A stretch of DNA of 64,000 nucleotides from Eledone cirrhosa. Lineage: Eukaryota. A model generated the notes under the pieces. The model made no database searches, was not told the origin of the DNA, and saw only the letters and a list, made by a program, of their open reading frames with translations. Below, piece after piece: positions 1 through 61,459 of the stretch (position 1 is its first letter; the number at the start of each line of letters is the position of its first letter). A program made the translations under genes and the position numbers. The stretch lies in contig OZ024740.1 of the NCBI GenBank assembly GCA_964016885.1, positions 93,248,001 to 93,312,000 of the forward strand, read 5' to 3'.

Positions 1-186
1 TAAACGCAGAACTGGATATTTCAAAAAACTTTGCAACCGGAGGAAGACAGGAAGACGATACTTTGGTTCGTGGAAACGTTCGCTGGCAAAGAACGGGAAA
101 AAACGAATAATACGTCATTAATAGGAGTAGTGAAAAACAATTATGCGCAAAGACAGAACCACGTTTATGGTATAAAAGAGGTCGTT
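1..186 (-). repeat. Inverted partial pseudo-LTR of the PLE (reverse complement of ~2016-2200)
   Basis: Near-identical reverse complement; an inverted 5' pLTR is typical of PLEs. Confidence 0.85.
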
Positions 187-1294
187 TCCCCAACGCGGAC
201 TGTGGTTTGTACCGTGGCGATGGTTTTAGTCCATGACTAAGTGCGGACCTCGTGCTTGCGACAGGTTCAGAAAAGAACTCACAGCCTTCTTTAAAGGATT
301 CGACCACTCTATACAGTTTGAGGCCAATCTCTCGGTCGTTATTTACCTCGACGTTACCCTCAATTTATTGAATGGGTCGTATTACCCGTAGAGAAAGCCG
401 AATGATACGCTTAATTAGATAAGTAAGCATTCCAACCATCCTGCCAGCATAACCAAGAACCTGGCAAGAAACGTTTCGTTGAGGCTTTCCCGTCTTTCCA
501 CCAACGAGCGTGTTTTCAACGACCATTCCACTTATTACAATGAAGCTCTTGCTCGAAGTGGATTTGTCGATAAGGTAGCATATACAGAGTACGAAAGTAG
601 ACCGAGAAGAAATAGATCCCGTCGCATTTGTTGGTATAACACACCATATATTATGGAGGTTGCCACACCATTAGCTAAGATCTTTCTTTCCCTTATTACG
701 AAGCATTTTCCACCTACGCATAAATATAGTAACATTTTTGATAGAAATACTATTAAAATGTCTTACTCTACGACTCCTATCCTTGCACATAACATCACAG
801 CTTCAAATTTAGCTAAACTACCTAGCCGTAGGAACACGTGCAACCCTGTAGTTAGTACTAACTGTAATTGTAGGAATTGGGCTGATTTCCCCCTATCCGT
901 GAAATGCCTCTCTAGTAACGCTGTCTACAAATGTAAGGTTGTAACACCCACGTCCCGTAGGGCCTACATAGGGTTAACCGCCAATAGCTTCAAGCAGCGT
1001 CATTACATGCATATCCATTCTTTTCGTTACCCTCTAAGAAGTAATATGACGTCACTTTCAGCTTATATCTGGAGTCTAAAAGACAACCACACCCAATATA
1101 AGTTACACTGGGAGATCCTAGCTAGGGCTAGATCGTATAACGTTAATAAAAGACCATGAGACGCTGAGGCCCTGGAAATACTCTACGCCACAGACCACAT
1201 CATGAACAAAAAATCTGAGACAATTTCGGCTTGTAAACATAAATTGCACAAAACTTTCCTGTATTACAGCCCCACGTTATACCCTAACGGATAG
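187..1294 (+). mobile_element. Penelope-like element, 5'-truncated: RT C-terminus plus GIY-YIG endonuclease (degenerate)
   Basis: Translation gives LDVTLNL..SNHP (RT thumb), CNCRN..PL..KCL, NAVYKCKV..AYIGLTANSFKQR (GIY-YIG) and a C-terminal MNKKSETISACKH; several stops. Confidence 0.9.
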
Positions 1295-1869
1295 TACGAT
1301 CTATACGTGGATATTTTACGTCTTGATGTGGGAGCTAAGTATATGTTTTGTTTATTTCTTTGCTTATTTGCATAGGTAAGTATATATTACCCGTATGTTT
1401 TGTGAAGGTACGTATAACTTCTCGTACCTATATTTGATTGTTATGGCATATAATTTTATATTTTCTGGTACATAGGGTTTGGCTATGTGTATATGGGAGT
1501 TTTGCGTCTGTGTGAGTATGTAGGTTCGTACGTATGGTGGGTGTGTGTATATGTGTACTTCTTGTTTTATTTGACTTACGTCTCCGAACATTCGTGTATT
1601 TATATGTAGGTATGTGTGTGCGCTTGTTATATACGTATTTATTTATTTATATACGTTTATATAATTTTTTATTTGTATACACGCATACACACACACACAT
1701 TTATATGTGCGTGGTTTTGTATACCTATGGTAAGGTTTTGCGTATGCTTGTGTATGTACGTATTTGTTTGCGTGTATGCATTTATTTATTTCTATTACTT
1801 CTGTATTAGATTTATTTACTCTGTTCTTAACTCTGTAGCGGAGATTCATTTGGTCTCCTAGGTAGAATT

Positions 1870-2282
1870 TTAGTCTACGACTTCTGCTATACCATTTGCG
1901 TGGTTTTGTCTTTGCTTGTTATTGTTCTCCACGATCCACATATGACGTATTATCTTCGTTGTTTCGTTCATTGCCAGAGAACGTCTCTATGCACCACCTA
2001 AGAGAACATTAGTCTACGACCTCTTTTATACCATAAACGTGGTTCTGTCTTTGCGCGTAATTGTTTTTCAGCGCTCCTATTAATGACGTATTATTCGTTT
2101 TTTCCCGTTCTTTGCCAGCGAACGTTTCCACGAACCAAAGTATCGTCTTCTTGTCTTCCTCCGCTTGCAACGTTTTTTGAAATATGCAGTTCTGCGTTTA
2201 CAGATTGACTTTGTTAGTTTCAGAAGATCCCGTTAAGGGTGAAAGCAGCGATTCTTTGCTTAAACTTTAATCTGTTATTTTA
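1870..2282 (+). repeat. 3' pseudo-LTR of the PLE with a diverged internal duplication; another copy at ~39767-40030
   Basis: 1870-1995 resembles 2010-2140; ~2027-2280 matches ~39767-40022; ends at (TA)n. Confidence 0.8.
2200..2275 (+). ncRNA. Type I hammerhead-like motif, core CAGAAGA
   Basis: AGTTT-CAGAAGA-T-CCC gttaa GGG-T-GAAA-GCAG..TTGC-T-T-AAACT; distal stem I ACAGATTGA/TTAATCTGT beyond a bulge. Confidence 0.7.
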
Positions 2283-2307
2283 ATAAATATATATATATAT
2301 ATATATA

Positions 2308-4420: not shown

Positions 4421-4458
4421 ATCCATGTTATCAAATATATATATATATATATATATAT

Positions 4459-4638
4459 ATAGGAACCAGTAAGACCCCGACAGCTGAGCTCAAGCCGTTT
4501 CGACGGCTAATTCGCCGTCGAAACGGCTTGAGCTCAGCTGTCGGGGTCTTACTGGTTCCTATTACCCACTCTACTACCTCAAGTATTGAGTACTTTGGTG
4601 CGTTATGGTCCACCTGGTTCCTTACCACATTTCCTTCG

Positions 4639-4640
<2 letters not shown>
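4459..4640 (+). mobile_element. Short fold-back element in (TA)n, with the 3' half of an HHR-like motif
   Basis: Palindrome 4459-4562 (about 49 bp arms, 6 nt spacer); (TA)n on both sides; related copies at 58416-58620 and 60822-60965. Confidence 0.75.
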
Positions 4641-4689
<49 letters not shown>

Positions 4690-16057: not shown

Positions 16058-19000
16058 TTAGTTATGCAAAACAAGACCACAAATTTAACAGGGAAGACAT
16101 TATCAAAAGATTGTCAACATATTGTTGTTTGATGTAAGGAATGTTGAGAATAATACTAACATTTTAATAATAATAATTGTTTCGACTTTAGGCACAAGGC
16201 CAGCAATTATCCGTTTACAATTATTTCGCTACTCCATATATTATTTCTGGATCAGATGACTATATATCATAATTGATCTGGTTCAGTTGAAAATAATTAA
16301 CATATTTAAAAAACAGAGTGGCTTATCGGAACTTCAAAGGAATATAAATTAAAATAGTTTTTTCTACTCTAGGCACAATGACAACAAATAACCAGTACAT
16401 TACTAGTACTTTATTTTATCGATCCCGTAAGAATATTAAAATAATGGGCTAATGTTATATAATATAATGTTCCATATATTGGTTTTTACAATGGTGTCTT
16501 GGTTGCATCAGTTGTCAGCCATAATCAAGCAGTATTCATCTGTCGAGGCTGCATTGTGTGAGATCTTCCTATGGGTAACAAGATGGCTGCCAAAGGGCAT
16601 ATTTACCTTACTAATTAGAGGGTGGTTTCAAGGGAAGTAACTTCTCGAGAGATTATAAATTGTGAGTGTTTATATTTAAGTGCTAATTATTAATTTTTTT
16701 AATTGGGAGACAATGTAGGGGAGGTAAATTATAATTATCAAGTTGTTCATAGCAATTTAACTTATTTGCTACAAGTAAAAATGGGGCTACATGACTAAGT
16801 TGGGTCAAATATTCTATTGGCGAAGGAATTAGCCCTTCGATGTTCACAGCTAATAGTTACCTCCGTTCTATCGATAATCGGTAGAGGTCGTGATATTTTT
16901 TTCGTCCATTGAACGGTTAGGTCCTAGCCACGATATCCCATTTTAGTGAGTGTTGAACGTTTTATAATATACGGTTTTTAATGAGCCTAGCTAGCGATGC
17001 CGAACATCTGTTGCTAGGGTCTCCGAAGGAAAAAGAGAGCGCGTTATAGCGTACCTTAAAAGGGTTAGATGTAGATCCGATATAAAAGCTGGTATTCGAA
17101 GCAGTCTCAACCGTGCACCTATAGACTATGTTGGGCGTCAGGCAGTGTCCATTTAATGGGCATGCATTGGGGTAACGGCAATTGCAGTTGCTTCTGCGGT
17201 TAGTGAGAGTAGTGTTGTTTAACCTAAGCGGTAGGTCCGTGCTAGAAGGATTAGAATGGAGAGGTGTGCTACTAGAGTAATTATTGGTGTAGTGGCGTGG
17301 TGTATTTGATAGGGGTGGTGGTACCGCGGTGTGAGAGTTATACTGTCTTAGCTTATGATAGTTACTGAACGCGATGTGGCAAGCTAGGTTATTTTTATTA
17401 AAGAGTTTGTCATATCTATGGGTGGGGGGAGTGTTTGGATATGGTAGAGAAGAAGCGTTTAGGGCTATTAGTGGCTAGATTAGATGAGAATGGAAGGTTG
17501 AGCCAGGTGATATTTCTATGTCTATTCCTTCTAGGGGTTCTAGTGAAGTTGGTAGGGGCCTTCCTAAGGTTATTATTACCTGGGGATTTGTTATTTGTCA
17601 TCCCATTTCTCATTCCTATTCTAGGGTTGATTTTTAGTTTAGTACTTGGAGTGGGGAGCAGGCCGCTGCCACCCTTAAAGTTCCCTGTATAGGTGGTGTT
17701 ACTGCTAAAATTCCGGCGAATCTGGCTATATGCTAAGGTATTTCTAGTTATAGTGTTAAGTTTATTATGGTGAGTTGCTGTATCATGGCATTTAGTTATG
17801 TAATAAATTGATTGTTTATAACCAGATTCAGAGAGAGCCTTATTATAATATTGTGCGTGGTTTATAAATATCTCCTCATTTGCTGATAGCATTGAGATCC
17901 TATAGGAGATAGATTTGATTACTGCTCTGATGACTGCGGGTGGGTGGTTAGAGTTTGGGCTAATATATGTGAGTATTTCACCTGGTTTATGGTATGGGTT
18001 ATAAATGTTATTGTTGAGATCAAGGGTGACGTCTAGGAAGTTTACTACTTTATGATTCGGCTCGATGGTGATAGAGAGACCGTTATTTTTGAAGAATCTA
18101 TGTAATTGTTTCTTTAGCAAATCGATTCCCCGATTAGTGCAATTGTGGACCGCAAATATGGCGTCGTCCCTGTATATTCCGCCTTGCATGAGTTGGATTT
18201 CGGCTGTGATGTTACGTCATAGGTAAATCCCAACTAAATCGTTGATTTGCGTGGAGTCATTTGAGCCCATCTTAATGTCAAAGTTGTCTGTTCTATCTTT
18301 TCTAGTCCAGAGTGCTCCGTTGAATTCATTGATAGTCTGCCTAGCCATAAGTATGATGTTAATATCATTATTGGTTATGTCTGAGTTGGTGGTGGCAAGG
18401 GCTAGTGCTTTGTTGAGCAGTTCCGGGGTTATTGACGCGTAATAGCTGTCTATGTCAAATTGGATGAACCTCATAGATTGCTTGGACCTTAGATCGGAGA
18501 ACCATCTGATGATTTGGCCGGTGTTGGACCACAACTTGTAGTTGGTATCATCCCGTAGCCCAGGGATTATCCTATCAAGGATGTTCTTACTGATGCGGCC
18601 CAGGTCAGATGTGGTTGGGCTTATGAGTGTAATGGATGGGTTCTCTATAAAGTTTGGCTTGTGATCCTTGAGAGAGAAACTTGGGGTTGTTGGTACATAA
18701 GGGTGGGTAAATCTATCCAGATGCAAGTCCTTAACCAAAGCCTGGGCTTTTCGGTTAAGTACGTTTACACAGGAGGGTGTAGTTTTTTATAGTTTTTATT
18801 GAGTTCTTTAAGAAGGAAAGAGTTATAATTTTTAGGAGTCATGGTGTATAGATTTTTAGTTTTGTCAGACATAACATGAAAGAGGTTGCTATCTTTAAAT
18901 GTTTTCATAGTAGTTGCTAATGTAGTGAGGAAGTTATTCTTGTGTCTATAATGATTTCTGAAGTTAATGCTCCTGACGAAGTTGAATAGATCTTTTTGAA

Positions 19001-19560: not shown

Positions 19561-19585
19561 ATAATAATAATATTAATAATAATAA

Positions 19586-19768
19586 TTGTTTCTACTTTAG
19601 GCACAAGGTCAGCAATTACCCAGTACATTACTGGTACTTTATTTTATCGACCCCGTAAGGATGAAAGGCAAAGTTAACCTAGGCAGGATTTGAACTCAGA
19701 ATGTAAAGGGACGTAACTATTCTAGAAAGCATGGCGTCCAACCCTCTACCGATACTGCCAATTCACCT
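19586..19768 (-). mobile_element. tRNA-derived SINE
   Basis: A box TGGCAGTATCGG, B box GAGTTCAAATCC, central CTTTGCCTTTCATCCTTACGGGGTCGATAAAAT; multiple copies in the window. Confidence 0.85.
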
Positions 19769-19825
19769 ATTAAAATCTCTACCCTCATTATAGAATAAAA
19801 ATACCTTATGTGCATGAATAAATAA

Positions 19826-20011
19826 TTGTTTCTACTTTAGGCACAAGGCCAGCAATTACCCAGTGCATTACTGATACTTTATTTTATCGATCCCGTAAGG
19901 ATGAAAGGAAAAGTCAACCTCGGCGGGAATTGAATTCAGATCGTAAAGGGACGTAACTATGCTGGAAAGCATGACGTCCGACCCACTACCGATACTGCCA
20001 ATCCACCGCCC
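19826..20011 (-). mobile_element. tRNA-derived SINE with TSD
   Basis: Same family; TGTGCATGAATAAATAA duplicated on both flanks. Confidence 0.88.
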
Positions 20012-20339
20012 TTGTGCATGAATAAATAAGGTCGTGTTATATGCTGTGCCCTCACCTCTTTGATTATGTTATATACATGAATATACCTTAAATTTATACT
20101 ATATTTATACATTATGTTGATCAATGTAATGACGATAATAATTTGTATTAATTATACTATTGATATAATTTGTCACGCAGTTTCTAGGTCAAATTTGACG
20201 GAGTGTTTGGTCATTTGTCAAGTCACATAACAGTCTTCTAATAGATAATATTTCTGATAATATGCGCGGTTTCTAGCAATTCTGAACTATTAAACTGCTC
20301 AAAATGTTTGGCTCTCTCATTACATTAGCCCCAAATATT

Positions 20340-28070: not shown

Positions 28071-28455
28071 TTTAACAGACATTTGGAAATCCTAATCCCG
28101 AAACAGGTTAGTTCAAAATCTAATTTGATAATCTTAACAACTAATGTAATCGAGCTACATTTATTTGCGTATTAATTAATTTGTATTTCGACCTCTATTG
28201 TGAAAGTTGTATTCTTATAAAAATATGTTCATATAAATTGGGCGCTCTTTTAAATATTTCTTTATTTAGGGAAACTAATAATAAAGATAGGAATATGAAC
28301 ATATTTTTATAAGAATACAACTTTCACAATAGAGGTCGAAATACAAATTAATTAATACGCAAATAAATGTAGCTCGATTACATTAGTTGTTAAGATTATC
28401 AAATTAGATTTTGAACTAACCTGTTTCGGGATTAGGATTTCCAAATTTCTGTTAA
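28071..28455. repeat. Near-perfect inverted repeat (~163 bp arms, ~58 bp spacer) close to (TA)n
   Basis: 28071-28234 is the reverse complement of 28293-28455. Confidence 0.9.
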
Positions 28456-28503
28456 AATGCATCAGTTTACATTTTATAATAAATGTTAAATTCTGTGTTT
28501 AAA

Positions 28504-34122: not shown

Positions 34123-34126
<4 letters not shown>

Positions 34127-34256
34127 GGCATGCTTGCTTGGAACAGCAAGAACCCTCCGATACGTCCTGAATATCTGAGGCTGCAGGTAGTGGCTTGACA
34201 TTCAATCCAACGGACTTTCCAGTTAACCAACATCAATGACTGAGATTCAAGGAATA
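34123..34256 (+). mobile_element. Dong/R4 LINE 3'-end fragment in (AAT)n
   Basis: KACLLGTARTLRYVLNI plus 3' UTR; reverse complement of ~34322-34455. Confidence 0.85.
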
Positions 34257-34283
34257 ACAACAATAATAATAATAATAATAATA

Positions 34284-34316
<33 letters not shown>

Positions 34317-34321
34317 GTTGT

Positions 34322-35257
34322 TATTCCTTGAATCTCAATCATTGATGTTGGTTAACTTGAAAGTCCGTTGGAATGAATATCAAGCCAATACCTGCAGCCT
34401 CAGATATTCAGGACGTATCGGAGTGTTCTTGCTGTTCCAAGAAAGCATGCCTTTTGAAGCGTTCCAAAAAGCGTGAAGGGGCCGATTTTCTTTAACCATC
34501 CCTGAAAGCTTTTGGAGATAGTGCGCCTATGACAATCGGGATCAGTTTGACTTCATGGCAGTTCCAAATCCTCTTCACCTCCCACTTTAGGTCCTGGTAT
34601 CGGTTAATTTTCTCCCTCTCCTTCTCTTGCACTCTCGTGTCGAAAGGGCAGGCCACATCCACAATCAGACACGATCTTTTTTCTTTGTCCACAACCACCA
34701 GGTCAGGTCTATTGTGTTCCAGTTTTTTGTCCGTCTGTATCCTAAAATCCCACAGCACCTTCATCTGATTGTTCTCCATCACCGCCTCTGGCTTATGCTC
34801 ATACCATTTCTCAGAATGTGGTAAATTGTTTACTTTGCACAGGTGCCAGTGGATCACCCTGCCCATCACATCGTGTCTCCAGCCCTTATAGTGGGTCTGG
34901 GCTAGGTGTTTACACTCGGACACAATGTGAGCCACAGTCTCCTCTCTCTCTCCACAGATCCTGCACAGTGGGCTAGCCTCCTCCTTGTAAATATGGTGCT
35001 TCAACCACTTCGTTTTGAGGGCCTGCTCCTGCGCAGCCATTAGCATTCCTTCTGTAGCCTTTTTGAGGTCTCCTCTTCTCAACCAGTTCCATGACTGTGG
35101 ATCTCTAAATTCAGTTTTCTCAAAGAAGGTACTATAAAGGGATTTTCCCTCAAGGCTGCTCTTCTTCCTTGATGTTATTTCCTCCTTGGACATCCCCTGG
35201 CCTACTGTCCCCCTCCTTCAGTACAGTTCTGAGCATTGGCTCCTTACTATAGGTCAC

Positions 35258-35258
<1 letters not shown>
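34322..35258 (-). mobile_element. 5'-truncated Dong/R4 LINE (zinc knuckle plus restriction-like endonuclease)
   Basis: CRICGEREETVAHIVSEC and RPDLVVVDKEKRSCLIVDVACP; (ATT)n on both sides. Confidence 0.92.
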
Positions 35259-35337
<79 letters not shown>

Positions 35338-35338
35338 G

Positions 35339-38300
35339 TTCTTTGAGTCTCAGTCATTGATTTTAGTTAACTGGAAAGTTTGTTGAAATGAATATCAAGC
35401 CACTACCTGCATCCTCACATATTCAGGACGTATCGGAGGGTTCTTGCTGTTCCCAGCAAGCATGCCTTTTGAAGCGTTCCAAAAAGCGTGGCGGCGCCAA
35501 TTTTCTTTAACCATCCCTGGAAACTTTTTGAGATAGTGCCTAGTGCGCCTATGACAATCGGGACCACTTTGAGTTCATGGCAGTTCCAAATCCTTTTTAC
35601 CTCCCACTTTAAGTCCTGGTATCGGTTAATTTTCTCCCTCTCCTTCTCTTGCACTCTCGTCTCGAATGGGCAGGCGACATCCACAATCAGGCACGATCTG
35701 TTTTCTTTGTCCAAAACCACCAGGTCGGGTCTATTGCGTTCCAGTTTCTTGTCCGTCTGTATCCTAATATCCCATAGCACCTTCACCTGATCGTTTTCTA
35801 TCACCGAATCTGGCTTATGCTCATACCACTTCTCAGAATGTGGTAAATTGTTTACTTTGCATAGGTGCCAGTTGATCACCCTGCCCATCACATCAAGTCT
35901 CCAGCCCTTATAGTGAGTCTGGGCTAGGTATTTACACTCGGATAATATGTGAGCCACAGTCTCCTCTCTCTCTCCACAGATCCTGCACAGTGGGCTAGCC
36001 TCCTCCTTGTAAATATGGTGTTTCAACCACTTCTTTTTGAGGGCCTGCTCCTGCGCGGCCATTAATATTCCTTCTGTAGCCTTTTTAATGTCTCCTCTTT
36101 TCAACCAGTTCCATGTCTGTGGATCTCTGAATTCAGTTTTCTCAAAGAAGGTACTATGATGGGATTTTTCCTGAAGGCTGCTCTTTCTCCTTGATGTTAT
36201 TTCCTCCTTGGACATCCCCTGGTCTATTGTCCCCTCCTTCAGTACAGTTCTGAGCATTGGCTCCTTACTATCATTCACGTATTTGTGTAGGTTGTTTTTC
36301 TCAATCTGGACACAGTCCTCTATGCTGATAAGACTTATTCCACCTTCAGATCTCCTTAAGGATAGTCTATCGACATCACTCCTCTTGTGGAACATGTTGT
36401 AGAAAGTCAATAGCTTCCTAGTCTTCCTATCCATTTCTTTTTGTTCAGCAACATTCCATCTCAGAATTCCCGCACTGTACGTAGTAATAGACACGGTTCG
36501 GGAATTTACTGCACTTATGGCATTACTACTGTTCAGATGTGACTTCAATACGCTCCTTACTTTCCGAATGTATTCAGTTCTTATCAATTCCTTCATTTTT
36601 TTGTTCTTGATGTCATGAGCCACCAGAACACACACATACATGTATCCTTTTTCAGAGTCAATTTCCTTTATCATCTCACTTGTCGGTACCTGTATTCCGT
36701 TACTTCTTCTCAATTTACCCCTCCTCATCACAAGGACTCCACACTTACTAATACCAAATTGCATACATATATCATTGCGGAAAATACGGACAGTGTCAAC
36801 AAGCACATCCAACTCCTACTCACACTTCCCGAAGAGCTTAAGATCGTCCATGAAGAGAAGGTGATTGATGGTAAGCCCTCCCTTTCCCAACCTGTATCCA
36901 GATCTCATTTTCGCAGTACACTGGTCAGGGGCTTCAGGGCAAGGACAAACAACAGAGGGGACAGACTATCTCCCTGGAAGATACCCCTCTTGATCTTCAC
37001 GCTTCCCAAGGATTCTCCAGTTGATGTTAACTCTCTTTCCCAGGACTTCATACGTTTCCCCAACAACTGTCTGATGTTATCTGCCACCTTGAAGATCTCC
37101 AGGCTTTTGGTGATCCAAGAATGAGGCACCATGTCAAATGCCTTTTTGTAGTCTATCCATCGCATGGCAAGACCAGTGTGTCTCCTCTTGCAATTCCTCA
37201 TTACCATCTTATCAATAAGTAGCTGGTCCTTTGTACCACGTGACTTCTTTCGGCAACCTTTCTGTTCGTCCGGCAACAAGTTGTTTGTGTGGAGGTGATG
37301 GTAGATTTCCTCAGCCATAATGCTCGTCAACAGTTTCCACATTACGGACAGACATGTGATAGGTCTATAGTTGGTAACATGATTACCCTTGATTCGGTCT
37401 TTCATTATCAGAACTGTGGTACCTTGTGTCAACCACTCTGGTACCTCACCTGACATCAAGCAGTCATTGAACATGGTTGTCAGTTTCGGGTGGAGGGATG
37501 TTATATTTTTAATCCAATACGCCTGCACACCATCTGCGCCTGGTGATTTCCAATTGGTTAGTTTTTTGGCCTGCCCCTTAAGAGTTTCAACTGTGATACT
37601 CAAATCAGTTTGTTAGTGTGCCTATTCACTAATCTCCTTCTGTACTGTCTCAATCCATACTGCCTGGTCATTATGTTTAACATCCTGCTCCCATATTCCA
37701 CTCCAGAATGTTTTAGTTTGTTCCGCCTCAGGAATCAAATCGTTGCCTCTTCCTTTCCCTTCAAGCTGTCCAAACAGCATCTTCTGGTTGTTGTCGAACA
37801 TGCGGTTCTGACTATACTGGCTGACTCTGTTGTATCGCCTGATTTTTGCACTCTTTGCTACAATGCGTTGCTTCAGTTCCTCTATGGTAATATTTAGCTT
37901 TTTCCTCCTAGTTTTGTACTTTATTTCCAGTCTATTTTTAGTGTCTATGTTTTTTAGTGTCCCATTCAGTAGGGACTCAAGCTTTCCAATGTCATTTCTC
38001 ATTTCCCTGATTTGACCATTCTGTCGTTTCTTTCACCAAGGCTCTGCTCTTTCTTGTATGTTGTTTCCTCTCGATTTTATACCAAGTAGTTTCCTCACCG
38101 TATTTGCTGTTGCTTTGAAGATATTGTTGCACTGGTGAAGGCTCCTCGCCTCAAGGTATGCTGTTGTTTCTTTTTACTTGTTCCTGTCTACAAATCTTAG
38201 GTTCATAGGTCTCCCACTATCATTGTTCAATTCATCTACCACTAAGTTTAGGATATCACAATATCTTGTCCTAGCCCATCAGCATTCATCTCCTCAGTGG

Positions 38301-39766: not shown

Positions 39767-39770
<4 letters not shown>

Positions 39771-40030
39771 CCATAAACGTGGTTCTGTCTTTGCGCGTAT
39801 TTGTTTTTCGCCGCTCCTATTAATGACGTATTATATTCGTTTTTTCCCGTTCTTTGCCAGGGAACGTTTCCACGAATCAAAGTATCGTCTTCCTGTCCTA
39901 CACCGGCTGCAACGTTTTTTGAAATATCCACTTCTGCGTTTAGAGATTGACTTTGTTAGTTTCAGAAGATCCCGTTAAGTGTGAAAACAGCGATTTTTTG
40001 CTTAAACTTTAATCTGTTATTTTATTAAAT
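39767..40030 (+). repeat. Solo pLTR of the PLE at 187-2282, with HHR-like motif at 39944-40017
   Basis: Matches ~2027-2280 and retains the CAGAAGA core and AGTTT/AAACT stem. Confidence 0.85.
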
Positions 40031-40115
40031 ATTTGCTCTACGGTTCTTATATATTTGATATATATTTATCCTTATCGAGCCTTCTTTGGATTATAGTCTT
40101 CAAATTTATTATTAT

Positions 40116-40724: not shown

Positions 40725-42409
40725 GAATAACAGATATGCCTTCAGCCTTGATGTAGTCGCTCTCTACACCTCGGGCCCGGCACTCCCGGCCGTCAATATA
40801 CTGATGGAACGCGTCCAATCCACCGACCTACACTGCTTCGGGCTCAACACCACTGACATCCACCAACTCCTATCCATTGTCGTCGACAACACCTACTTCG
40901 GATTCCTTGACCAAACATACCAAAAATCCTCGGGATTGCCCATGGGATCAATCCTGTCCGGTGTGCTAACGATCTCTTACATGGACAATCTCGAGCGCAA
41001 GGCACTCAACGCCTGCCACACCAACGCCGTAGCCTTTTTCTCAAGGTACGTGGACGATATCCACATCCTCAAATCTTCCCAAGACAAGGCGAACAGAATA
41101 TATGAGACGTTCAACAACACGGACGAGAACATTGACTTCAGTGTTGAACACCCTCCTCGACTTGCCCTCCTCGACTTCCCAATTAACATCACGGAACAGG
41201 GAAGGATCCACTGCAACTTCTACCGAAAGGCAGCCTGCAGAGACCTGTTCGTTCACTACAAGTCCGCCCTCCCTAACAGCGCCAAAAGAGGATACATCAC
41301 GAACGAGATCGCGCGAATCAAAAACAGATGCAGCGATCCCGCGAGTGGTGTCACTCATACCACGCGATTCCTCGAGGTGGTGGAGACGAACGAGTACCTT
41401 ACCTCGTTCACAGACAGAATAGGAGACACCAGACACAAGAGACAGAGAGGCACCCAAGGCAAGTGCCTCCTTAAAATCCACCACCAACGCTATCCGCAAG
41501 GCTATACGGAGGGAGGGCCTCGACATCCACCTGGCCCATTCGGGCCCCTCCCTGCGAAGATGCCTCTCCAGAAAACCCGGGAAATCTACTGACGCATGCT
41601 CCCTCAGACACTGCCCGATACGCGATGCGAACTGCTGCCTACGCACATACGTCGTGTATAAGATATAATGTGACAGGTGCAACCAATACTACATAGGTAG
41701 CACAATCCGACCTTTGCACATCCGGATCAAGGAACACACTAAAAGCAGGGCCTCATCTTCCCGTAAACACATAGACAAATGCCGAAACAAAGACGGAAGG
41801 CCCATTGTCACAATTCTAGCGACTGAAAGAAACGTCGGTACGTAACGTATCAAGGAAGCGCTTTTTATCAAACGTCCGCAACCGCAAATAAACAATTGAT
41901 CCGAGAGAAGCGAAATTAGATGGCTGGTTTAAGTTAACAAACGATGCAACAACACACGCACACGCACACACAGTAAAATTTAACAAACAGGCAGAGAATG
42001 GACTGACAGCTAGCGCCACCCCACTCCCTCATTCGGCAGCTGACCTCTGCCCGATCGACCCCATTTCACGCGCACGCGAGCTCTGCTGAATACCTCAGAT
42101 ATTCAAAACAACAAACAGCGGAGGACGCGTTTCGCACCTTTCCCCCACCCCGGAAAAAAACCCAGTTGATGGATGTGAATCCGAAATGTATAGGGACAGT
42201 TAAATCTCTCCCAAGGTAACTCTATCTCGTGTTGTTATTCTAATTGTTTTTATTTCATCCTTTATACTCTTTCCTTCATTCTTCTACACGTCTTATACAC
42301 ACCACGCAACTTAACGTACACCCACTTACATCTCTCTCTCCACCACCGGATCTTGTTACCCGGAGATTTACCCATTTGCATTGTCGAGGCTTCCAAACCA
42401 CTTAAAGAT

Positions 42410-42829: not shown

Positions 42830-42830
<1 letters not shown>

Positions 42831-43844
42831 CGGCGATGAATTAGTTTTGCGAGGTTTGTTTATATGAAATCGTGTGTCGAAACAAATATTGTTTTACTTG
42901 GGGAAGGTTATACTTGTGTAATATTGCCAGAATCAATAACAAAACACACTCACTGTTTGGTTGGTTTTCGCTTCTCGCTTCTGTGTCTTTTATATCGGTA
43001 ATCTAACTTACTCGGTCCTCAATGTTGCCATTGACTGACCGACGGTCAAACATAATACAGATACAATATAGACACAAACACATATATATAGTTTATCATA
43101 AATCTTTCGTTGCACATCTTGCAACATCCTCAGTGGTGTTATCGTTTCCTCCTGTTGTATTATATGTCTACGCAATTTTTATTCAGTCTGTCTATATATT
43201 TATTTATTTATTTGCTTGTTTGTTTATTTTATTTTGTCTTCTTTGCGCATGCGTTTGCGTGTGTGTAGTGTTTTGTTTGCTGTGTGATGGGTGACTAGTG
43301 TGTGTTTATGTGCTTGTTGTTATTGTGTTTGTCTATTTATTTATTTATTTATTTATTTTTTTAATTTTTTTTATTTACTTAGGTCAGTGTTGTTTGTTTG
43401 GGTGTTGTTGTTATTCCATTCATTCTTTCTGTTTAGTCTTGGCCTTCCAATTTCTATTTCACTGGCCTCTCTGATTTGCCTATCTGCTGGTTCATTTCTA
43501 TGTTTAGATATTATTCTAATTTCTATGTTGTCTATGTTACCGTCATGTTGTTGTCTAGCATGTTTGTATAGTACTGACCTATTTTTTTGTCCTTTTAATT
43601 CCCCCCAGTATTGGTCTATCCTTTCACCTATGCTACGAGCTGTCTCACCTATGTATGTTGTTGTCTTGTTTCTGCAAGTATCCTCTGTACACCTTATGCT
43701 ATAGACTATGTTTCTAATTTTACAGTTTATCCGGGGGTTTACCTTACATATGATACACTTCCTATTGGTAGAGTGGGTTTTCTTAAAAGTGTGTTCTGTT
43801 ATTAATTCTGGCAATATTACACAAATATGACCCTCCCCAAGTAT

Positions 43845-43845
<1 letters not shown>
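42830..43845 (-). mobile_element. PLE 3' fragment (GIY-YIG plus pLTR) between (TA)n tracts
   Basis: ORF 43371-43814: CIICK..NIVYSIRC..TYIGETARSIGERI..RQIREASEI..LNRKNEW. Confidence 0.88.
43096..43136 (-). ncRNA. Minimal type I hammerhead with canonical core
   Basis: CCA-CTGAGGA-T-GTTGCA agatg TGCAAC-GAAA-GATT-TA-TGA, downstream of the GIY-YIG ORF on the same strand. Confidence 0.75.
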
Positions 43846-43892
<47 letters not shown>

Positions 43893-43895
<3 letters not shown>

Positions 43896-44647
43896 GAAAC
43901 ACACAGATACATGCGGACACACACATATATACATGAATGCATCCGCACCCAACTGTGAGTTAAGGGTGCCAACTTCACCGATGTTGCTCAATGAATGACT
44001 GGGACAGACCAATTCAGTTGAACTAGACTGAACCAGTATCAGAGTTAAAAATACATTATGAAGAGAGAAGAAACATTTAGATATAATTAGTAATAAAATG
44101 TATCATACCTAAACTGCTCCTAAATTCCTCGACTACGTAGTTTCGTGGCATAAACAAAAACAATATATCAAAGATATAGAGTCCTTGCGAGGTCTGCCGA
44201 CTTATCAAGAGGATATCTCATTTTACTAGTCTCAAGAACGCGTCTACACGACGTGAGAAAGAATCCCAAAAGGCGGAGGGGGAGATAGTCACGCGATACT
44301 TCTCGCCTTCTTCACTACCTCTTCTACGGCCTCGATATGAATACCCCCTCCGCCTCCGTGGTATTTTCTTCGTGGTTATAAGAGGCTTAGCTCTGTTTCT
44401 CGACTGTTATATCGCGTGACTATCTCCCCCTCCGCCTTTTGGGATTCTTTCTCACGTCGTGTAGACGCGTTCTTGAGACTAGTAAAATGAGGTATCCTCT
44501 TGATAAGTCGGCAGACCTCGCAAGGACTCTATATCTTTGATATATTGTTTTGTTTATGCCACGAAACTACGTAGTCGAGGAATTTAGGAGCAGTTTAGGT
44601 ATGATACATTTTATTACTAATTATATCTAAATGTTTCTTCTCTCTTC

Positions 44648-44652
<5 letters not shown>
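43893..44652. mobile_element. Fold-back HHR element in (TA)n (same family as 58787-59765)
   Basis: Arms ~44055-44297 and ~44410-44652 are nearly identical inverted copies; each carries an HHR. Confidence 0.88.
44495..44581 (+). ncRNA. Type I HHR, U3-A8 core, long stem II (mirror copy 44126-44213 on minus)
   Basis: TCCTC-TTGATAA-GTcGGCA...TGCCAC-GAAA-CTACGTAG-TC-GAGGA. Confidence 0.8.
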
Positions 44653-44691
<39 letters not shown>

Positions 44692-44694
44692 ACA

Positions 44695-45482
44695 ATAGGG
44701 AGAAAAAGACGAATTTTAGGAAGAAAAATATTGTTTCCTTTTATTGTTTTCTCTTTTTTCTGGGTTAGAAAATGTTTAGAACAAAATATTTTAATTTGTG
44801 TGAAGTGTTAAGATATTAGGTAATTTATTTATTATTTAACAATAGCATTTATTTATTTATTTATACATTTAATAATTGTCTATTACCGGTTTCATCATTT
44901 GATGCACTATCAAAGGAGGGGGGGGGGTATTGGTGTGAAATGTTGGTGATGTTGAACATGTTCGGGAAATGGGGAAGAAAGAATAATATTATTTACAAAC
45001 AAGGTTTTTGAAGTGAAAAAAAAAGAGGGGGTGATGTGGAACATGATAAGGTAATGGGAACGGATAATATTATTTGCAGGCATAGGTCTTGAGGAACTAT
45101 GCATGTAAATAATATTATTCTTTTCCATTACCTTATCATGTTCCACATAACCCTCTTTTTTTTTTTTTTCTTTTCACTTCAAAAACCTTGTTTGTAAATA
45201 ATATTATTCTTTCTTCCCCATTTTCTTAACATCACCAACATTTCACACCAATACAAATTCCCCCCTTTGATAATGCATAACATGCTGAAACCGGTAATAG
45301 ACAATTATTAAATATATAAATAAATAAATAAATACCATTGTTAATTCATAAATAAATTAACTAATACCCTTCACACAAAGTAAAATATTTTGTTTGAAAC
45401 ATGTTCTAACCCAGAAAAAAGAGAAAAAATAAAAGGAAAAACAAATATTTTTCTTCCTAATAATCGTCTTTTTCTCCCTATT
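44695..45482. mobile_element. ~790 bp diverged palindrome in (TA)n with a minimal HHR-like motif (45263-45300 on plus; mirror ~44881-44917)
   Basis: Arms of ~390 bp centred near 45090; TTGATAA-T-GCAT aac ATGC-T-GAAA-CCGG-TA, with a poor stem I. Confidence 0.8.
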
Positions 45483-45536
45483 CTCATATATATATATATA
45501 TTCCAACTCGTGTGCTCCTACTCCATATGTTGTAAT

Positions 45537-45625
<89 letters not shown>

Positions 45626-46097
45626 TATGGGTGTATGCGCGTGTGTGTGTGTGGGGGTGTGTGGGTGTGTGTGTGTGTGTGTAAATAGAATTTGCTTGAT
45701 TAAAATAACAGGAGGTCGGACTGGTAAAGTTCCTTTAATATTTTATTCTTGCAAAAACACTATATACATATTCCAATGTGCGTGTTAATTAATATCCTGG
45801 CGACATCATCAGGTTAGTTTGCATAATTAATCAATCAATGGACGAATTACGCCAAACAGAAACAGAAATAGTACAAATAGAGAAAATATTTCATACGGAG
45901 ATGGAATGTGTCAATAAAAGCACCTTGTTTGTTAGCCATCTCCGAATCATCTATGTTTGTATTATCTCTGTTTGTTTTGCCGTTATTACTGTATTGATTA
46001 GCTGAATATGCCATACATGCCTCATGATTTCAGCAGGACCTTACGTAACCCAGACATTGAAATATGTATAGTGTTTACAACAATAAATATTTAAGGG

Positions 46098-47011
<914 letters not shown>

Positions 47012-54951: not shown

Positions 54952-55601
54952 AGTTTATATATCTAGTTTATATAATTATTACATAATTATTGGAAAACGC
55001 AATACACGGACGAAAGCATGGTAGAGGTATTTAAATGTATTCTATTTTCTCCTAGTTTATTTTAAACCTAATTCTGCTTAGTTGACTGTATCTAGGCGAT
55101 TACGCTGTCGAAATATTCGATAAATATCCCGCTACGGCCGACGCGAAGCGCTAGTTTTGGTTATTTGTCGGAGATTCCTTCATAGAAGCCTCATTTGTAT
55201 AGCCCGGTCTATTCGATTTCATATATAGTTACTTATGCTAATTGGGAGAGGAAATAGTATATATTTTATCTCGTGATTCTATAGACATATTTTATGATAT
55301 ATAGCTCTGATTGTTTAATTTATTAATTTTTCATTGAGCCAAAAAGTGATCAGTTGCAAAACACGTATATGTATGTGTATGTATATATATATATGTAAAC
55401 TTTTATATGTAATAATCTCCCACTAGGTTGAGATACAAATTTGGCTGTATTGTGCTGTGCTTTCTATCAAAAATGCCACCAGTCGTAAGCAACTACCACA
55501 CCCCTTCCAACTTGACCGCGACTACGTCACGATTTTTAGCCATTTTGAAATGAATACTTGGCGCGATCGTTTTGGAAAATTTAATGTCTAGATATGAGCG
55601 A

Positions 55602-55689
55602 GCTTCCTGAAGAATCCGGCGCTCGAGTTTATATAGTTATTACATAATTATTGGAAAACTAAAAACACGGACGAAACCATAGTAGAGGT
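55602..55689 (+). ncRNA. Type I HHR with canonical CUGAAGA core and ~59 nt stem II
   Basis: GCTTC-CTGAAGA-ATCCG...CGGAC-GAAA-CCATAG-TA-GAGGT. Confidence 0.75.
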
Positions 55690-56259
55690 ATTTAAATGTA
55701 TTCTATTTTCTCCTAGTTTATTTTAAACCTAATTCTACTTAGTTGACTGTATGTAGGCGATTACGCTGTCGAAATATTCGATAAATTTCCCGCTACGGCC
55801 GACGCGAAGCGCTAGTTTTGGTTATTTGTCGGAGATTCCTTCATAGAAGCCTCATTCGTATAGCCTGGTCTATTCGATGTCATATATAGTTAATTATGCT
55901 AATTGGGAGAGGAAATAGTATATATTTTATCTTGTGATTCTATAGACATGTTTATGATATATAGCTCTGATTGTTTAATTTATTAATTTTTCATTGAGCC
56001 AAAAAGTGACCAGTTGCAAAACACGTATATGTATGTGTATGTATATATATATGTAAACTTTTATATGTAATAATCTCCCACTAGGTTGAGATACAAATTT
56101 GGCTGTATTGTGCTGTGCTTTCTATCAAAAATGCCACCAGTCGTAAGCAACTACCACACCCCTTCCAACTTGACCGCGACTACGTCACGATTTTTAGCCA
56201 TTTTGAAATGAATACTTGGCGCGATCGTTTTGGAAAATTTTATGTCTAGATATGAGCGA

Positions 56260-56347
56260 GCTTCCTGAAGAATCCGGCGCTCGAGTTTATATAATTATTA
56301 CATAATTATTGGAAAACTCAAAACACAGACGAAACCATAGTAGAGGT
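56260..56347 (+). ncRNA. Second HHR copy of the 660 bp repeat
   Basis: Same fold; inner GAGTTT/AAACTC and ATAATTAT/ATAATTAT hairpin. Confidence 0.7.
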
Positions 56348-56613
56348 ATTTAAATGTATTCTATTTTCTCCTAGTTTATTTTAAACCTAGTTCTACTTTC
56401 TTGACTGTATCTAGGCGATTACGCTCTCGAAATATTCGATAAATATCCCGCTACGGCCGACGCGATGCGCTAGTTTTGGTTATTTGTCGGAGATTCCTTC
56501 ATAGAAGCCTCATTCGTATAGCCTGGTCTATTCGATTTCATATATAGTTAATTATGCTCATTGGGAGAGGAAATAGTATATATTTTATCTTGTGATTCTA
56601 TAGACATGTTTTA

Positions 56614-56831
<218 letters not shown>

Positions 56832-57376: not shown

Positions 57377-58228
57377 TTCAAAAGTAACCAGTTTTAAAGA
57401 GAGAGATGGAGATAGTAGATGAGATATGAGAGGAGAGATTGGTGAGTTAGTTAGAAGCCAAAGCGTAAAGGCATGTGCTCAATGTGCAATATGCAGTAGA
57501 ATGCAGCTATGTGGCTGGGTTCATGCAGAGGTTAGGTGCGCTGAGCTGGAAATATTCATTAGTTAAGCAAAACAAGGCCACAAACATCACAAGGAAGACA
57601 TTATTAAAAGATTGTCAACATATTTTAGTTTGATGTAAGGCATGTAGAGAATAATAATAATAATTGTTTCTATTTTAGGCACAAGGCCAACAATTACCCA
57701 GTGCATTACTGGTACTTTATTTTATAGACCCCGTAAGGATGAAAGGCAAAGTCAAACTCGGCGGGATTTGAACTCAGATCGTAAAGGGACGTAACTATGC
57801 TGGAAAGCATGGCGTCCGACGCTCTACCGATACTGCCAATCCACCGCCCTAGAGAATAATAATAATAATATTAATAATAATAATGTCCGTTTACAATTGT
57901 TTCGCTACTCCATATCATATTTCTGGATCAGATGATTATATATCATAATTGATCTGGTTCAGTTGAAAATAATTAACATATTTAAAAAACAGAGTGGCTC
58001 ATCGGAATGTTAATTATTTTCAATTGAACCTGATCAATTATGATATATAATCATCTGATCCAGAAATATTATATGGAGTAGCGAAACAATTGTAAACGGA
58101 CATTATTATTATTAATATTATTATTATTGTTCTATACATTCCTTACATCAATCTAAAATATGTTGACAATTTTTTAATAATGACTTCCTTGTGAAGGTTG
58201 TGGCCTTGATTTGCTTAACTAATGAATA
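57372..58228. mobile_element. Solo fold-back pLTR of the 16053-19560 PLE family in (TA)n, with HHR at 57889-58007 (minus)
   Basis: 57372-57660 matches ~19270-19560; 58007-58228 is an inverted copy of ~57555-57980 without the SINE. Confidence 0.85.
57664..57849 (-). mobile_element. tRNA-derived SINE with TSD
   Basis: Same family; TAGAGAATAATAATAATAAT duplicated. Confidence 0.9.
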
Positions 58229-58230
58229 TA

Positions 58231-58353
<123 letters not shown>

Positions 58354-58357
58354 GTAC

Positions 58358-58415
<58 letters not shown>

Positions 58416-58417
<2 letters not shown>

Positions 58418-58620
58418 CGAAGGAGGTGTGGTAACGAAGCAGTTTGTGGCCTTGATTTGCTTAACTAATGAATATTAACGGAGCAGATGGACAATAACGC
58501 ACCATACTACTCAATACATATGGTAGTAGAATGGGTAATAGGGAAATGTTTAACCCCGACGGCAGAGCTCAAGCTGTTTCGAAACGTCTTGAGCTCTGTC
58601 GTTTGGGCTAAACTTTTTCT
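58416..58620 (-). mobile_element. Short fold-back element, family of 4459-4640
   Basis: Reverse-complement similarity to 4520-4640; palindrome centred on TTTCGAAA at ~58580; (TA)n flanks. Confidence 0.7.
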
Positions 58621-58626
58621 TATATA

Positions 58627-58759
<133 letters not shown>

Positions 58760-58786
58760 TGGCAGAGAGAAACTCACAGATATTTG

Positions 58787-59765
58787 CGAGTAACCTTTGA
58801 AGTGTAGTGACCGCTGGATAGCTACCATTACTCATACATCTCGCCTCCTCAAACCACCTCTTCTATGTCTTTGATATGAATACCCCTCCGCCTCCATCGT
58901 ATTTTTTCAGGGTTATAAGGGTCTTAGCTCTGTTTCTTGACGGCTGTATCACGTGATTGATTCTCCCTTCACCTTTTCGAGATTCTATCTCGCGCATTAC
59001 ACACGTTTTTTTGAAATCCTTAATGAGGTATCCCCTTGATAAGTCGGCAGAACCTCACAAAACTCTATATCTCTATGATCTAGTGTTTTTGCATAATATT
59101 CACGAAATTACGTAGTCGGGGACTATAGAAGCAGCTAGGTATGATATATCTTATTACTAATTATATCTAATGTTTCTACTCTCTTCATAATGTACTATAT
59201 AGGTCTGATACTGAATCAGTCTAATCCATTCGGATTGTTTTGTCCCAGCTATTCATAGAGCAACATCGGTTGAGGTTGGCACCACTAACGCAGGGATATA
59301 TGTGGATATATTCATGTATATGTATATGTCCGCATGTATCTGTGTGTTTCTCTCTATATATTGTTTATAACTCCATTTGGTCGAGTAACCTTTGAAGTGT
59401 AGTGACTGCTGGATAGCCACCATTACTCATACTTCTCGCCTCCTCAAACCACCTCTTCTCCGGCTTTGATATGAATACTCCCTCCGCCTCCGTGGTATTC
59501 TTTTCAGGGTTATAAGGGCCTTAGCTCTGTTTCTTGACGGCTGTATCACGTGATTGACTCTCCCTCCGCCTTTTCAAGATTCTATCTCGCGCATTACAGA
59601 CGGGTTTGAAATCCTTAATGAGGTATCCCCTTGATAAGTAGGCAGAACCTCACAAAAACTCTATATCTCTATGATCTAGTGTTTTTGCATAATATGCCAC
59701 GAAACTACGTAGTCGGGGACCATAGAAGCAGCTAGGTATGATATATCTTATTACTAATTATATAT
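58787..59765 (+). repeat. ORF-less tandem repeat, ~595 bp x 1.6, with HHRs at 59031-59122 and 59626-59719 (retrozyme-like)
   Basis: Units start at 58787 and 59382; TCCCC-TTGATAA-GTnGGCA...TGCCAC-GAAA-CTACGTAG-TC-GGGGA. Confidence 0.88.
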
Positions 59766-59782
59766 TTATATATATAAATAAA

Positions 59783-59852
<70 letters not shown>

Positions 59853-60017: not shown

Positions 60018-60821
60018 GAACGTAAGCACTCGGAATAAATTACCTTTTTTTATGATGAATACCTGTTTTCAATCATTCTTTGTTGATACTTCGGAATGCA
60101 GAAGGACCAGAAACTGAGTTTCTCCAACTATACTTCCGGAGCTCGTTGACTAACCCCTAACCGTACGTCAACTCTATCTAGTGTAGTAATTAACCATTAC
60201 AGCATTCAGGATGATCGTAAGTATTCCTTCCATAACCTAATATATATATATATATATGTATAAACTTTGCAACTTTCATGTATCTTAAGCCAGTGTTGAT
60301 GCCATGTGGCTAAAAAACTTCCTTTTAAAAAAAAGCAACTCGACAAAATATCCCCTCCACCTACATGCCGCCCTACCCGAGCCCCAATATCGACCCGCCT
60401 CACGTCACTATGCTTATGTAAGTACCTCATACCTATCTGCTTTTCCACATGTGTATATATGTATAAACACACACACACACATATATATTTATTTAATATC
60501 AGTGTATATATGTATATATATACAAAGATATTAAATAAATGGAAACTATATTTATAAAACTATATTTATTTTATTATATATATTTCACGCGTACCAGGAC
60601 AACACTTGAACGGTTTCATCAGATAACATACAAAATTTGTTTCATAAATAGAGACGTGTACATGAAAATCATTATTTATCGGTTGGAAATTCACTGGATA
60701 GTCATAGTATCATTGAATATTTACTGCAGTAAACTGTTGCGTGTTCTAAATCAGTTATAAACATATATATTTGTCGGATTCCAACAAATTAAATACCCCA
60801 TCTACTTATATATATATATAT

Positions 60822-60965
60822 ATAGGAATGAGTAGGACCCCGACGGTGAGTTCAAGCCGGTTCGACGGCTAATTCTGGACTCCAGAATTAGCCGTCGAAA
60901 CGGCTTGAGGTCAGCCGTCGGGGTCCTACTCATTCCTATTACCCACTCTACTACACTAAGTATTT
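60822..60965 (+). mobile_element. Short fold-back element, family of 4459-4640
   Basis: Palindrome 60822-60939; GAAA-CGGCT..AGCCG-TC-GGGG. Confidence 0.75.
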
Positions 60966-60977
60966 CGAACTAATAAT

Positions 60978-61459
60978 ATGGTTAATATACATTATAATAA
61001 TAATAAATCGAAATGTAATTGTAGAAATAAACCAGATTTCCCTCTTCAAAATAATTGTCTGGATAGAAATGTGGTGTATAAATACCCCGTAAAAGCAAAT
61101 AACATCACATACAACTACATAGGGGCAACTTCCTCGACATTAAAATCGAGATTTGGGAATCACAAATGCTCTTTTCGAATCCTAATAGGAAGTCTTCGAC
61201 TTCTTTATCACAGCTTATATGGTCATTAAAGGACATAAATGTAAAATACTCGATTTTCTGGACGAAGCATTGTAATAGTAGAATCTACTCGAATTCGTCA
61301 ATATCACTTACCTGCAACCTCTGTACTATGGAGACCATATTAATAATGATTAATTATGAAATCTTAATTAACCAAAAAAGTGAATTATTCTCAAACTGCC
61401 TTCATAAAGCTTTGTCTACATTCAAAGCCTCGCAAAAAGTCTGGAAAAACACTAAATGA
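60978..61459 (+). mobile_element. PLE GIY-YIG endonuclease fragment (frameshifted)
   Basis: CNCRNK..PL..NCL..NVVYK..NYIGATSSTLKSRFGNH; CNLCTMETILI..LINQKSELFSNCLH. Confidence 0.85.

Follow-up and report, generated by a model that had tools for sequence, protein, structure and literature searches.

Non-LTR retrozymes of metazoans, as defined in PMC7229834, are built from units of 170-400 nt, and a later preprint (bioRxiv 10.64898/2026.07.22.740005) ties them to the pLTRs of Penelope-like elements (PLEs) and gives a unit range of 51-972 bp. For the PLEs, PMC8557442 describes tandem and inverted pLTRs, tails, (TA)n targeting and non-autonomous PLE tandems, and states as open how the tandem and inverted insertions are made. 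Trans mobilisation between pLTRs is shown in PMC3846280, where self-priming is also proposed for PLEs. In vitro, the purified anole PLE nicks and extends both strands, accepts uncut RNA as template and begins reverse transcription at two internal stem-loop sites (PMC11167929). According to PMC8557442, nearly all Hydra PLEs target (TA)n and carry hammerhead ribozymes (HHRs) with a 3-4 bp AC..GU helix III; loop II is ~30-35 nt in the HHRs of PLE-X1, and the split cores of the Naiads lie 35-50 nt apart. Schistosoma PLEs with U3-A8 cores and with opposite-strand HHR pairs 100-700 bp apart are described in PMC4209133. The element class, the tandem and fold-back architectures, the U3-A8 core variant, the opposite-strand HHR pairs and PLE-derived retrozymes are all already published.

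The stretch of DNA analysed here, the window, is 64 kb of AT-rich, eukaryote-like DNA dense in microsatellites, LINE remnants and PLE remnants. It holds a 597-nt unit with a type I hammerhead at two loci only, one a tandem and the other a fold-back. With the metazoan non-LTR retrozymes, as the cited accounts present them, it shares non-coding head-to-tail units with one type I HHR each, a GC content below 45% and a proposed PLE origin and mobilisation. Its length lies inside the range of the 2026 preprint and above that of 2020. Unlike those retrozymes, it has a U3-A8 core with 56-63 nt between the core halves instead of the canonical compact HHR, comprises only 1.65 units in tandem and occurs also as a head-to-head fold-back. 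With the insertions of EN+ PLEs (PMC8557442, PMC3846280) it shares direct and inverted repeats, head-to-head orientation, a one-end extension, a microsatellite target and a sense HHR near the 3' end. It differs from them, as described there, in the lack of an RT/GIY-YIG ORF, in an extension of 160-190 nt as against 30-40, and in arms that are not nested. The discovery is a modest one, and its weight rests on the non-nested fold-back and the long-helix-II hammerhead; the lopsided fold-back hints at how PLE-type elements insert.

The unit and its two loci

The tandem locus has the following features, with unit positions counted from the cleavage site (C17).

58633..58754: left flank, (TA)40 then (GA)21
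58764..58788, minus strand: probable short inverted piece at the tandem 5' end, reverse complement of unit +214 to +238, 22/25 identical, overlapping the T1 start by 2 nt
58787..59374, plus strand: T1, the first unit, beginning 330 nt upstream of its own cleavage site
59118..59186, plus strand: hairpin H1, directly 3' of the cleavage site; the two subfamilies retain it, with z -3.0 and -4.7
59287..59348, plus strand: hairpin H2, retained by the two subfamilies (z -5.7 and -5.0) and followed closely, on its 3' side, by the end of each inverted segment
59375..59763, plus strand: T2, the second, partial unit, ending 49 nt past its own cleavage site in an AT patch
59764..59848: right flank, an AT-only run with (TA)30

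Positions 58782-59166 match 59375-59763 in 363 of 391 columns (93% identical), and therefore the tandem amounts to 1.65 units with the unit-to-unit junction seen once. An earlier note on this DNA had described a direct tandem with 597 nt from GUC to GUC; the spacing is exact (59714 - 59117 = 597) and the head-to-tail order is confirmed, over the 1.65 units only. T1 and T2 differ by 7%, with polarised derived substitutions split 12 to 4 (p 0.077) and nine further differences that could not be polarised. The 25-bp inverted piece scores above 2000/2000 shuffles. It is called probable because it is of low complexity and because its score is equalled in 5/2690 random windows and 2/65 microsatellite-adjacent windows. 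It stops at the unit site where the left arm of the fold-back stops, and so the two loci may share one architecture.

The fold-back locus, 43895..44651, is composed as follows.

43849..43892: left flank, (TA)22, common to a GIY-YIG PLE fragment
43895..44299, minus strand: left arm, unit positions -168 to +236
44296..44299: head-to-head inversion junction, 3-4 nt overlap
44296..44651, plus strand: right arm, unit positions -280 to +75
44651..44688: right flank, (TA)19, common to another fold-back element

The arms match in 245 of 248 columns (44051-44298 against 44410-44656), or 241/244 without the TA ends (99%), and differ at 2-3 positions. They are orientated head-to-head with 445 bp between the two cleavage sites. 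They are not nested: the left arm has ~160 nt extra at its 3' side and the right arm 112 nt extra at its 5' side. Each arm thus has unit sequence absent from its partner, and each halts at an element-(TA)n boundary. The inverted repeat with ~242-bp arms that had been placed at 43893-44652 is right in arm length (~244 bp), but the arms are not at the ends of that span, the left having the ~160 nt more of unit. Likewise the two loci carry the same hammerhead unit, as the phrase "one HHR family" implied, but as two subfamilies, since the tandem and fold-back copies are 75-79% identical. Fold-backs are not peculiar to this unit; the window has 20 local inverted matches compared to none in 3 shuffles, and 13 of 19 fold-backs (a window-edge row left out) stop, on at least one side, no more than 7 nt from a (TA)n or (TAA)n run. 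Arm identity in the other fold-backs is 68-98%.

The unit has 40.5% GC and, folded as a circle, a predicted stability of z -3.2 (30 shuffles). It is non-coding. The longest stop-free frame is 63 aa in the tandem and 79 aa in the fold-back, and the two subfamilies are separated by frame-breaking indels. A set of 150 GIY-YIG PLE-like proteins gave no tblastn match to the unit at E<=1e-3; the same set does match three PLE remnants elsewhere in the window. A search for a coding remnant within the unit found none, and on either side of the junction there is no ORF start or PLE protein similarity. The stability of H2 is kept better than with re-dealt substitutions (1/300; H1 13/300), as is that of the stretch between them (1/300), in a test that re-deals substitutions and leaves indels in place. 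Pair-breaking counts are not significant (H1 P 0.20, H2 P 0.12), and H2 is GT/AT-rich sequence that pairs easily. Donor-like GTATGA, branch-like CTAAT and acceptor-like CAG motifs, unscored, are present at 59139-59219 (plus strand) and in the left-arm counterpart, thus in both subfamilies; their spacing is similar in a second family of 658-661 bp described below, and the motifs may be chance in AT-rich DNA.

The ends of the unit vary from copy to copy. The 3' ends are at +49 (T2), +75 (right arm) and +236 (left arm), and the 5' ends at -330, -280 and -168. Every outer end of both loci enters (TA)n, with (TA)19-40 flanks on both sides; of 1000 positions drawn at random, 8.4% lie within 60 nt of such a run. 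TATA patches, which make up 29/597 unit positions, coincide with two of the three 3' end sites, with boundaries against (TA)n that are ambiguous. No target-site duplication (TSD) is visible at either locus, only 5-6 nt chance matches outside the arrays; a TA duplication would be invisible inside (TA)n. Both loci have a tail at one end, +75 against +236 in the fold-back and +49 against +238 in the tandem, and the forward piece begins, on the 597-nt map, 81 and 27 nt 3' of the +236/+238 site. If the 25-bp piece is real, each locus combines an inverted segment that stops just past H2 with a forward segment that stops at H1 or beyond it, a pattern of two cases that was noticed after the fact.

These features define the class of the element. 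The unit is not a MITE because it is non-coding, lies in (TA)n, has ragged ends and shows neither terminal inverted repeats (TIRs) nor a visible TSD; its arms are internal and asymmetric. The fixed TIR ends that the earlier note had named, together with TSDs, as the mark of a MITE are absent, and the ends are variable. A plant LTR retrozyme was rejected since it needs a type III HHR and helix I is open in all four copies, and an autonomous PLE since the unit has no RT and GIY-YIG ORF. The consecutive head-to-tail units with type I HHRs (1.65 units, helix II of T1 partly decayed), the absence of protein coding, the size of a few hundred bases and the GC below 45% are those of a non-LTR retrozyme, or non-autonomous PLE derivative. 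The hammerhead has a core and three helices, but helix II is extended relative to the canonical compact type I HHR and Rfam does not report it. Integration at both loci was very probably of the PLE type, because each of the following points that way: the head-to-head inverted, 5'-truncated copy, the one-end tail, the AT-rich (TA)n microsatellite target, the sense HHR near the 3' end, and the ragged ends with no TIR or visible TSD.

A hammerhead with a long helix II

A type I hammerhead descriptor that allows 3-8 covariation found four strong copies in the window, all with the core UUGAUAA; 20 shuffles gave 4 strong matches in total.

59031..59122, plus strand: hammerhead of T1, core at 59036, C17 at 59117; helix II partly decayed; HHR fold predicted 4.0 kcal/mol above the free MFE
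59626..59719, plus strand: hammerhead of T2, core UUGAUAA at 59631, C17 at 59714; HHR fold 1.3 kcal/mol above the free MFE
44126..44213, minus strand: hammerhead of the fold-back left arm, core at 44208, C17 at 44131; HHR fold 1.1 kcal/mol above the free MFE
44495..44581, plus strand: hammerhead of the fold-back right arm, core at 44500, C17 at 44576; HHR fold 3.4 kcal/mol above the free MFE

A stricter descriptor returned the same four copies and one other site, with 3 matches in 30 block-shuffled windows. A covariance model built from the four copies found no fifth in the window (next score 15.9 bits, E 0.49). The earlier note had proposed gathering all copies and classifying their junctions; within the window this gives four hammerheads at two loci, with the 597-nt junction only once. 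These hammerheads were missed by a strict CUGANGA scan, and an Rfam scan of the window gave no hammerhead at gathering level or at E<=10. Weak Rfam miRNA matches stem from H2 and (TA)n and were discarded.

The hammerhead is of type I with a U3-A8 core. Helix I is 5 bp. Helix II, which occupies the 56-63 nt between the core halves, starts from a 6-bp base with a bulge and continues through an internal loop into a distal hairpin. A full 10-nt palindrome makes up helix III; it is predicted to form a self-dimer of -12.9 kcal/mol and no hairpin on its own. In a structure derived from the same four sequences, 14/14 pairs are kept in all four copies (55/55 cells), the core does not vary and one change is two-sided; slid controls are 30-59% paired. 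Covariation against a shuffle control (79/500) and a pair-breaking test (P 0.27) were not significant. The palindromic helix III suggests, from the predicted pairing, that cleavage would occur mainly in dimers and would be slow enough to leave uncut templates; dimer cleavage is proposed by analogy with the hammerheads of PMC4209133.

In design the hammerhead resembles two published groups. The unit shares with the Hydra-clade PLEs of PMC8557442 the (TA)n target, a helix I of 4-7 bp and an AC..GU helix III, as compared by eye. Penelope-13_HM of that clade has an inverted 5' copy with an opposite-strand HHR, as in the fold-back, and Penelope-1_NV has by eye the same helix I and helix II base (PMC8557442). 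The Hydra HHRs listed there differ in having a C3-G8 core and a loop II of 3-10 nt. A comparison of the unit with the consensus supplement of PMC8557442, where line breaks can hide matches, gave no relevant motif match. Second, the unit is like the Cercyon min-HHRs of Schistosoma mansoni (PMC4209133) in its U3-A8 core, opposite-strand pairs, short helix I and palindromic helix III region. It is unlike them, as they are described, in the full 10-nt palindrome of helix III and in the internal loop and distal hairpin of helix II.

Proposed two-primer insertion and its alternatives

On balance we lean towards a PLE-derived retrozyme of ~597 nt, mobilised in trans and inserted into (TA)n from two primers. 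The non-coding unit would derive from a PLE terminal repeat, and an autonomous PLE would supply the RT/GIY-YIG protein that copies it into (TA)n microsatellites. It would be transcribed as a multimer or a circle. The PLE enzyme would cut both strands of (TA)n, and each target 3' end would prime reverse transcription inside the RNA, one near H1 (+49/+75) and the other just 3' of H2 (+236/+238). The two cDNAs would stop at variable points, and a complementarity of 2-4 nt would serve to join them 3' to 3'. If the first cDNA were long and the second very short, the result would be the tandem with an inverted head of 25 bp; two cDNAs of medium length, both crossing a hammerhead, would give the fold-back.

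Several observations are consistent with this scheme. The non-nested arms fit two cDNAs, each primed on a different strand of the target, that annealed through the 3-4 nt overlap. The inverted segments ending at +236/+238 and the forward starts 81 and 27 nt downstream are as twin priming predicts. The scheme agrees with the activity of the purified anole enzyme as reported in PMC11167929, and applies to a repeated template the twin priming described for L1 in PMC2912911. The L1 5' inversions likewise show two target-strand primings, a head-to-head join and junction microhomology; their pieces, in contrast, derive from a single RNA without repeats and show no overlap, whereas copies of a repeated template would overlap into a palindrome. 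Against the scheme, the initiation site of PAc is not homologous to its target, whereas two of the three end sites of the unit are on TATA patches. As to the template, a monomer circle is disfavoured since the first cDNA would meet the second primer in its first round, and the uneven 7% divergence of T1 and T2 does not agree with a single circle copied in one round, unless the insertion happened long ago. The second, unrelated 2.5-mer tandem with a long-helix-II hammerhead (54962-56622) counts for the retrozyme reading. Against two-primer insertion in trans are the single 597-nt-closing junction, the two loci and the absence of a partner in the window. As to the partner enzyme, the target and ribozyme design prompt a guess at the Hydra-clade PLEs as most likely.

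Tentatively, both loci may represent one twin-primed architecture with two hairpin-marked priming sites on a repeated ribozyme RNA, its carrier belonging to a group of ~600-660 nt long-helix-II retrozymes, represented in these 64 kb by two unrelated families; it is part of the same doubtful joint reading that long-helix-II hammerheads are missed by Rfam and short-spacer descriptors. If so, the genome would preserve in the non-nested fold-back a trace that distinguishes two-primer insertion from self-priming, and twin priming would explain why PLE tails occur at one end only. With an element that is short, abundant and non-coding and whose ends can be counted, the two routes would be testable from the genome alone; it would show, too, that searches for ribozymes find too few of the animal retrozymes that have a long helix II. 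A literature search, with subscription journals mostly outside its coverage, found no account of PLE inversions by twin priming, which weakly suggests that the two-primer reading has not been published before.

The main alternative, which we consider possible though less probable, is that both loci are cis products of an autonomous PLE and that no free 597-nt element moved in trans. The fold-back would be a doubly 5'-truncated pLTR with tail, and the tandem a pLTR-tail-pLTR that lost its ORF in one internal deletion. The junction seen once agrees with this, 1.65 units are exactly pLTR-internal-pLTR, and two direct pLTRs with one inverted are the standard PLE layout in PMC3846280. In addition, the entire fold-back sequence falls within -280 to +236, and the unscored GT..branch-like..AG pattern 3' of the ribozyme in both subfamilies is what a PLE 5' UTR intron might show. 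However, the flanks of the junction carry no trace of an ORF start or PLE protein, and the 240 nt 3' of the ribozyme are non-coding and structured in two subfamilies, whereas published tails are 30-40 bp. Moreover, a true multimer of the same design lies 2 kb away. Mobilisation in trans by a PLE enzyme is likely, as judged from sequence features. The earlier note's attribution to PLEs thus agrees with published PLE structures as regards integration; its trans component stays inferential, and the cis reading keeps its weight, because none of the five GIY-YIG PLE remnants in the window (0/5) shares sequence with the unit; truncated pLTR-and-tail products of an internally deleted autonomous PLE would also have the same appearance.

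Self-priming, in which a strand folded back, copied itself and had one arm trimmed during or after integration, appears improbable for the fold-back. The 99% identity of the arms and the junction microhomology are as it predicts, and nested arms do occur in the inverted piece of the tandem, in three small CGAAAC fold-backs ("family X") and in the PLE at 42830-43852. One self-copied hairpin, however, cannot give non-nested arms without later loss; of the two arms, the one that is shorter on the 3' side is longer on the 5' side, and a further loss of ~160 nt from a young insertion would be needed.

Sequencing fold-back artefacts typically give near-identical arms, and fold-backs are dense in the window, one of them a LINE; but a DNA-level inversion, MITE or assembly chimera unrelated to retrotransposition is very improbable, given repeats that are internal and asymmetric, ends that differ between copies, no TSD past the chance matches, arms that each carry private sequence up to the (TA)n boundary, 2-3 differences between them and identities of 68-98% in the other fold-backs.

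Other elements in the window

The unrelated unit of 658-661 bp is present in 2.5 head-to-tail copies, ~95-97% identical, at 54962-56622 (plus strand) within (TA)n, and is a clearer retrozyme tandem than the locus of the 597-nt unit. Its hammerhead is also of type I, and the CUGAAGA cores lie at 55607 and 56265; the core halves are 59 nt apart, helix III is near-palindromic and there is A-C at 10.1-11.1. The covariance model from the 597-nt unit did not detect this family in the window.

A family of small fold-backs lies in (TA)n at 4435-4660, 58338-58647 and 60807-60964. The arms are nested, and close to their start is a CGAAAC motif, perhaps the 3' half of a hammerhead; the short-arm end is the same in 3/3 copies and the long-arm end is common to two. 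The copy at 60807-60964 runs into a GIY-YIG fragment at 60984-61226.

PLE remnants are of several kinds. The remnant at 1-2290 (plus strand) has an inverted 5' copy of its own 3' UTR (1-185 against 2016-2200), ends in (TA)n and carries a candidate hammerhead with a U4A core at 2221-2261; a solo 3' piece of it is at 39767-40032 (plus strand). A broken PLE at 16962-18786 (minus strand) has RT motifs that by eye match Hydra-clade elements, and hammerhead scans of its 3' region found none. The 5'-truncated PLE at 42830-43852 comprises a GIY-YIG fragment (43422-43826, minus strand), a 65-bp inverted piece and a ~60-nt tail, and has one (TA)n in common with the fold-back of the 597-nt unit. At 40741-41926 (plus strand) is a PLE RT/GIY-YIG remnant, with a GAAAC-palindrome-GUC motif on the opposite strand at 42134 for which no matching 5' core was found. 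Of nine window ORFs, Pfam recognised domains in three, and these were RT and zf-RVT only. With two PLE fragments as queries, word-based protein searches gave no match; an exhaustive search with one fragment gave 869 relatives at E<=0.001, the long ones with a C-terminal GIY-YIG region.

A SINE-like dispersed repeat of ~200 bp (19574-20027, 46218-46432 and 57652-57865) is 85-94% identical among copies, with no tRNA called by ARAGORN. A LINE RT in the window has organism-named matches in cnidarians only, at 56-59% identity, and a LINE remnant at 34123-36815 forms a 1-kb tail-to-tail inverted repeat (91% identical) round (TAT)n with a nested palindrome. Further fold-backs, mostly beside (TA)n, are at 28071-28456, 44691-45485, 45696-46952 and 57885-58101, the last with an outward-facing GAAAC-palindrome-GUA motif in each arm.
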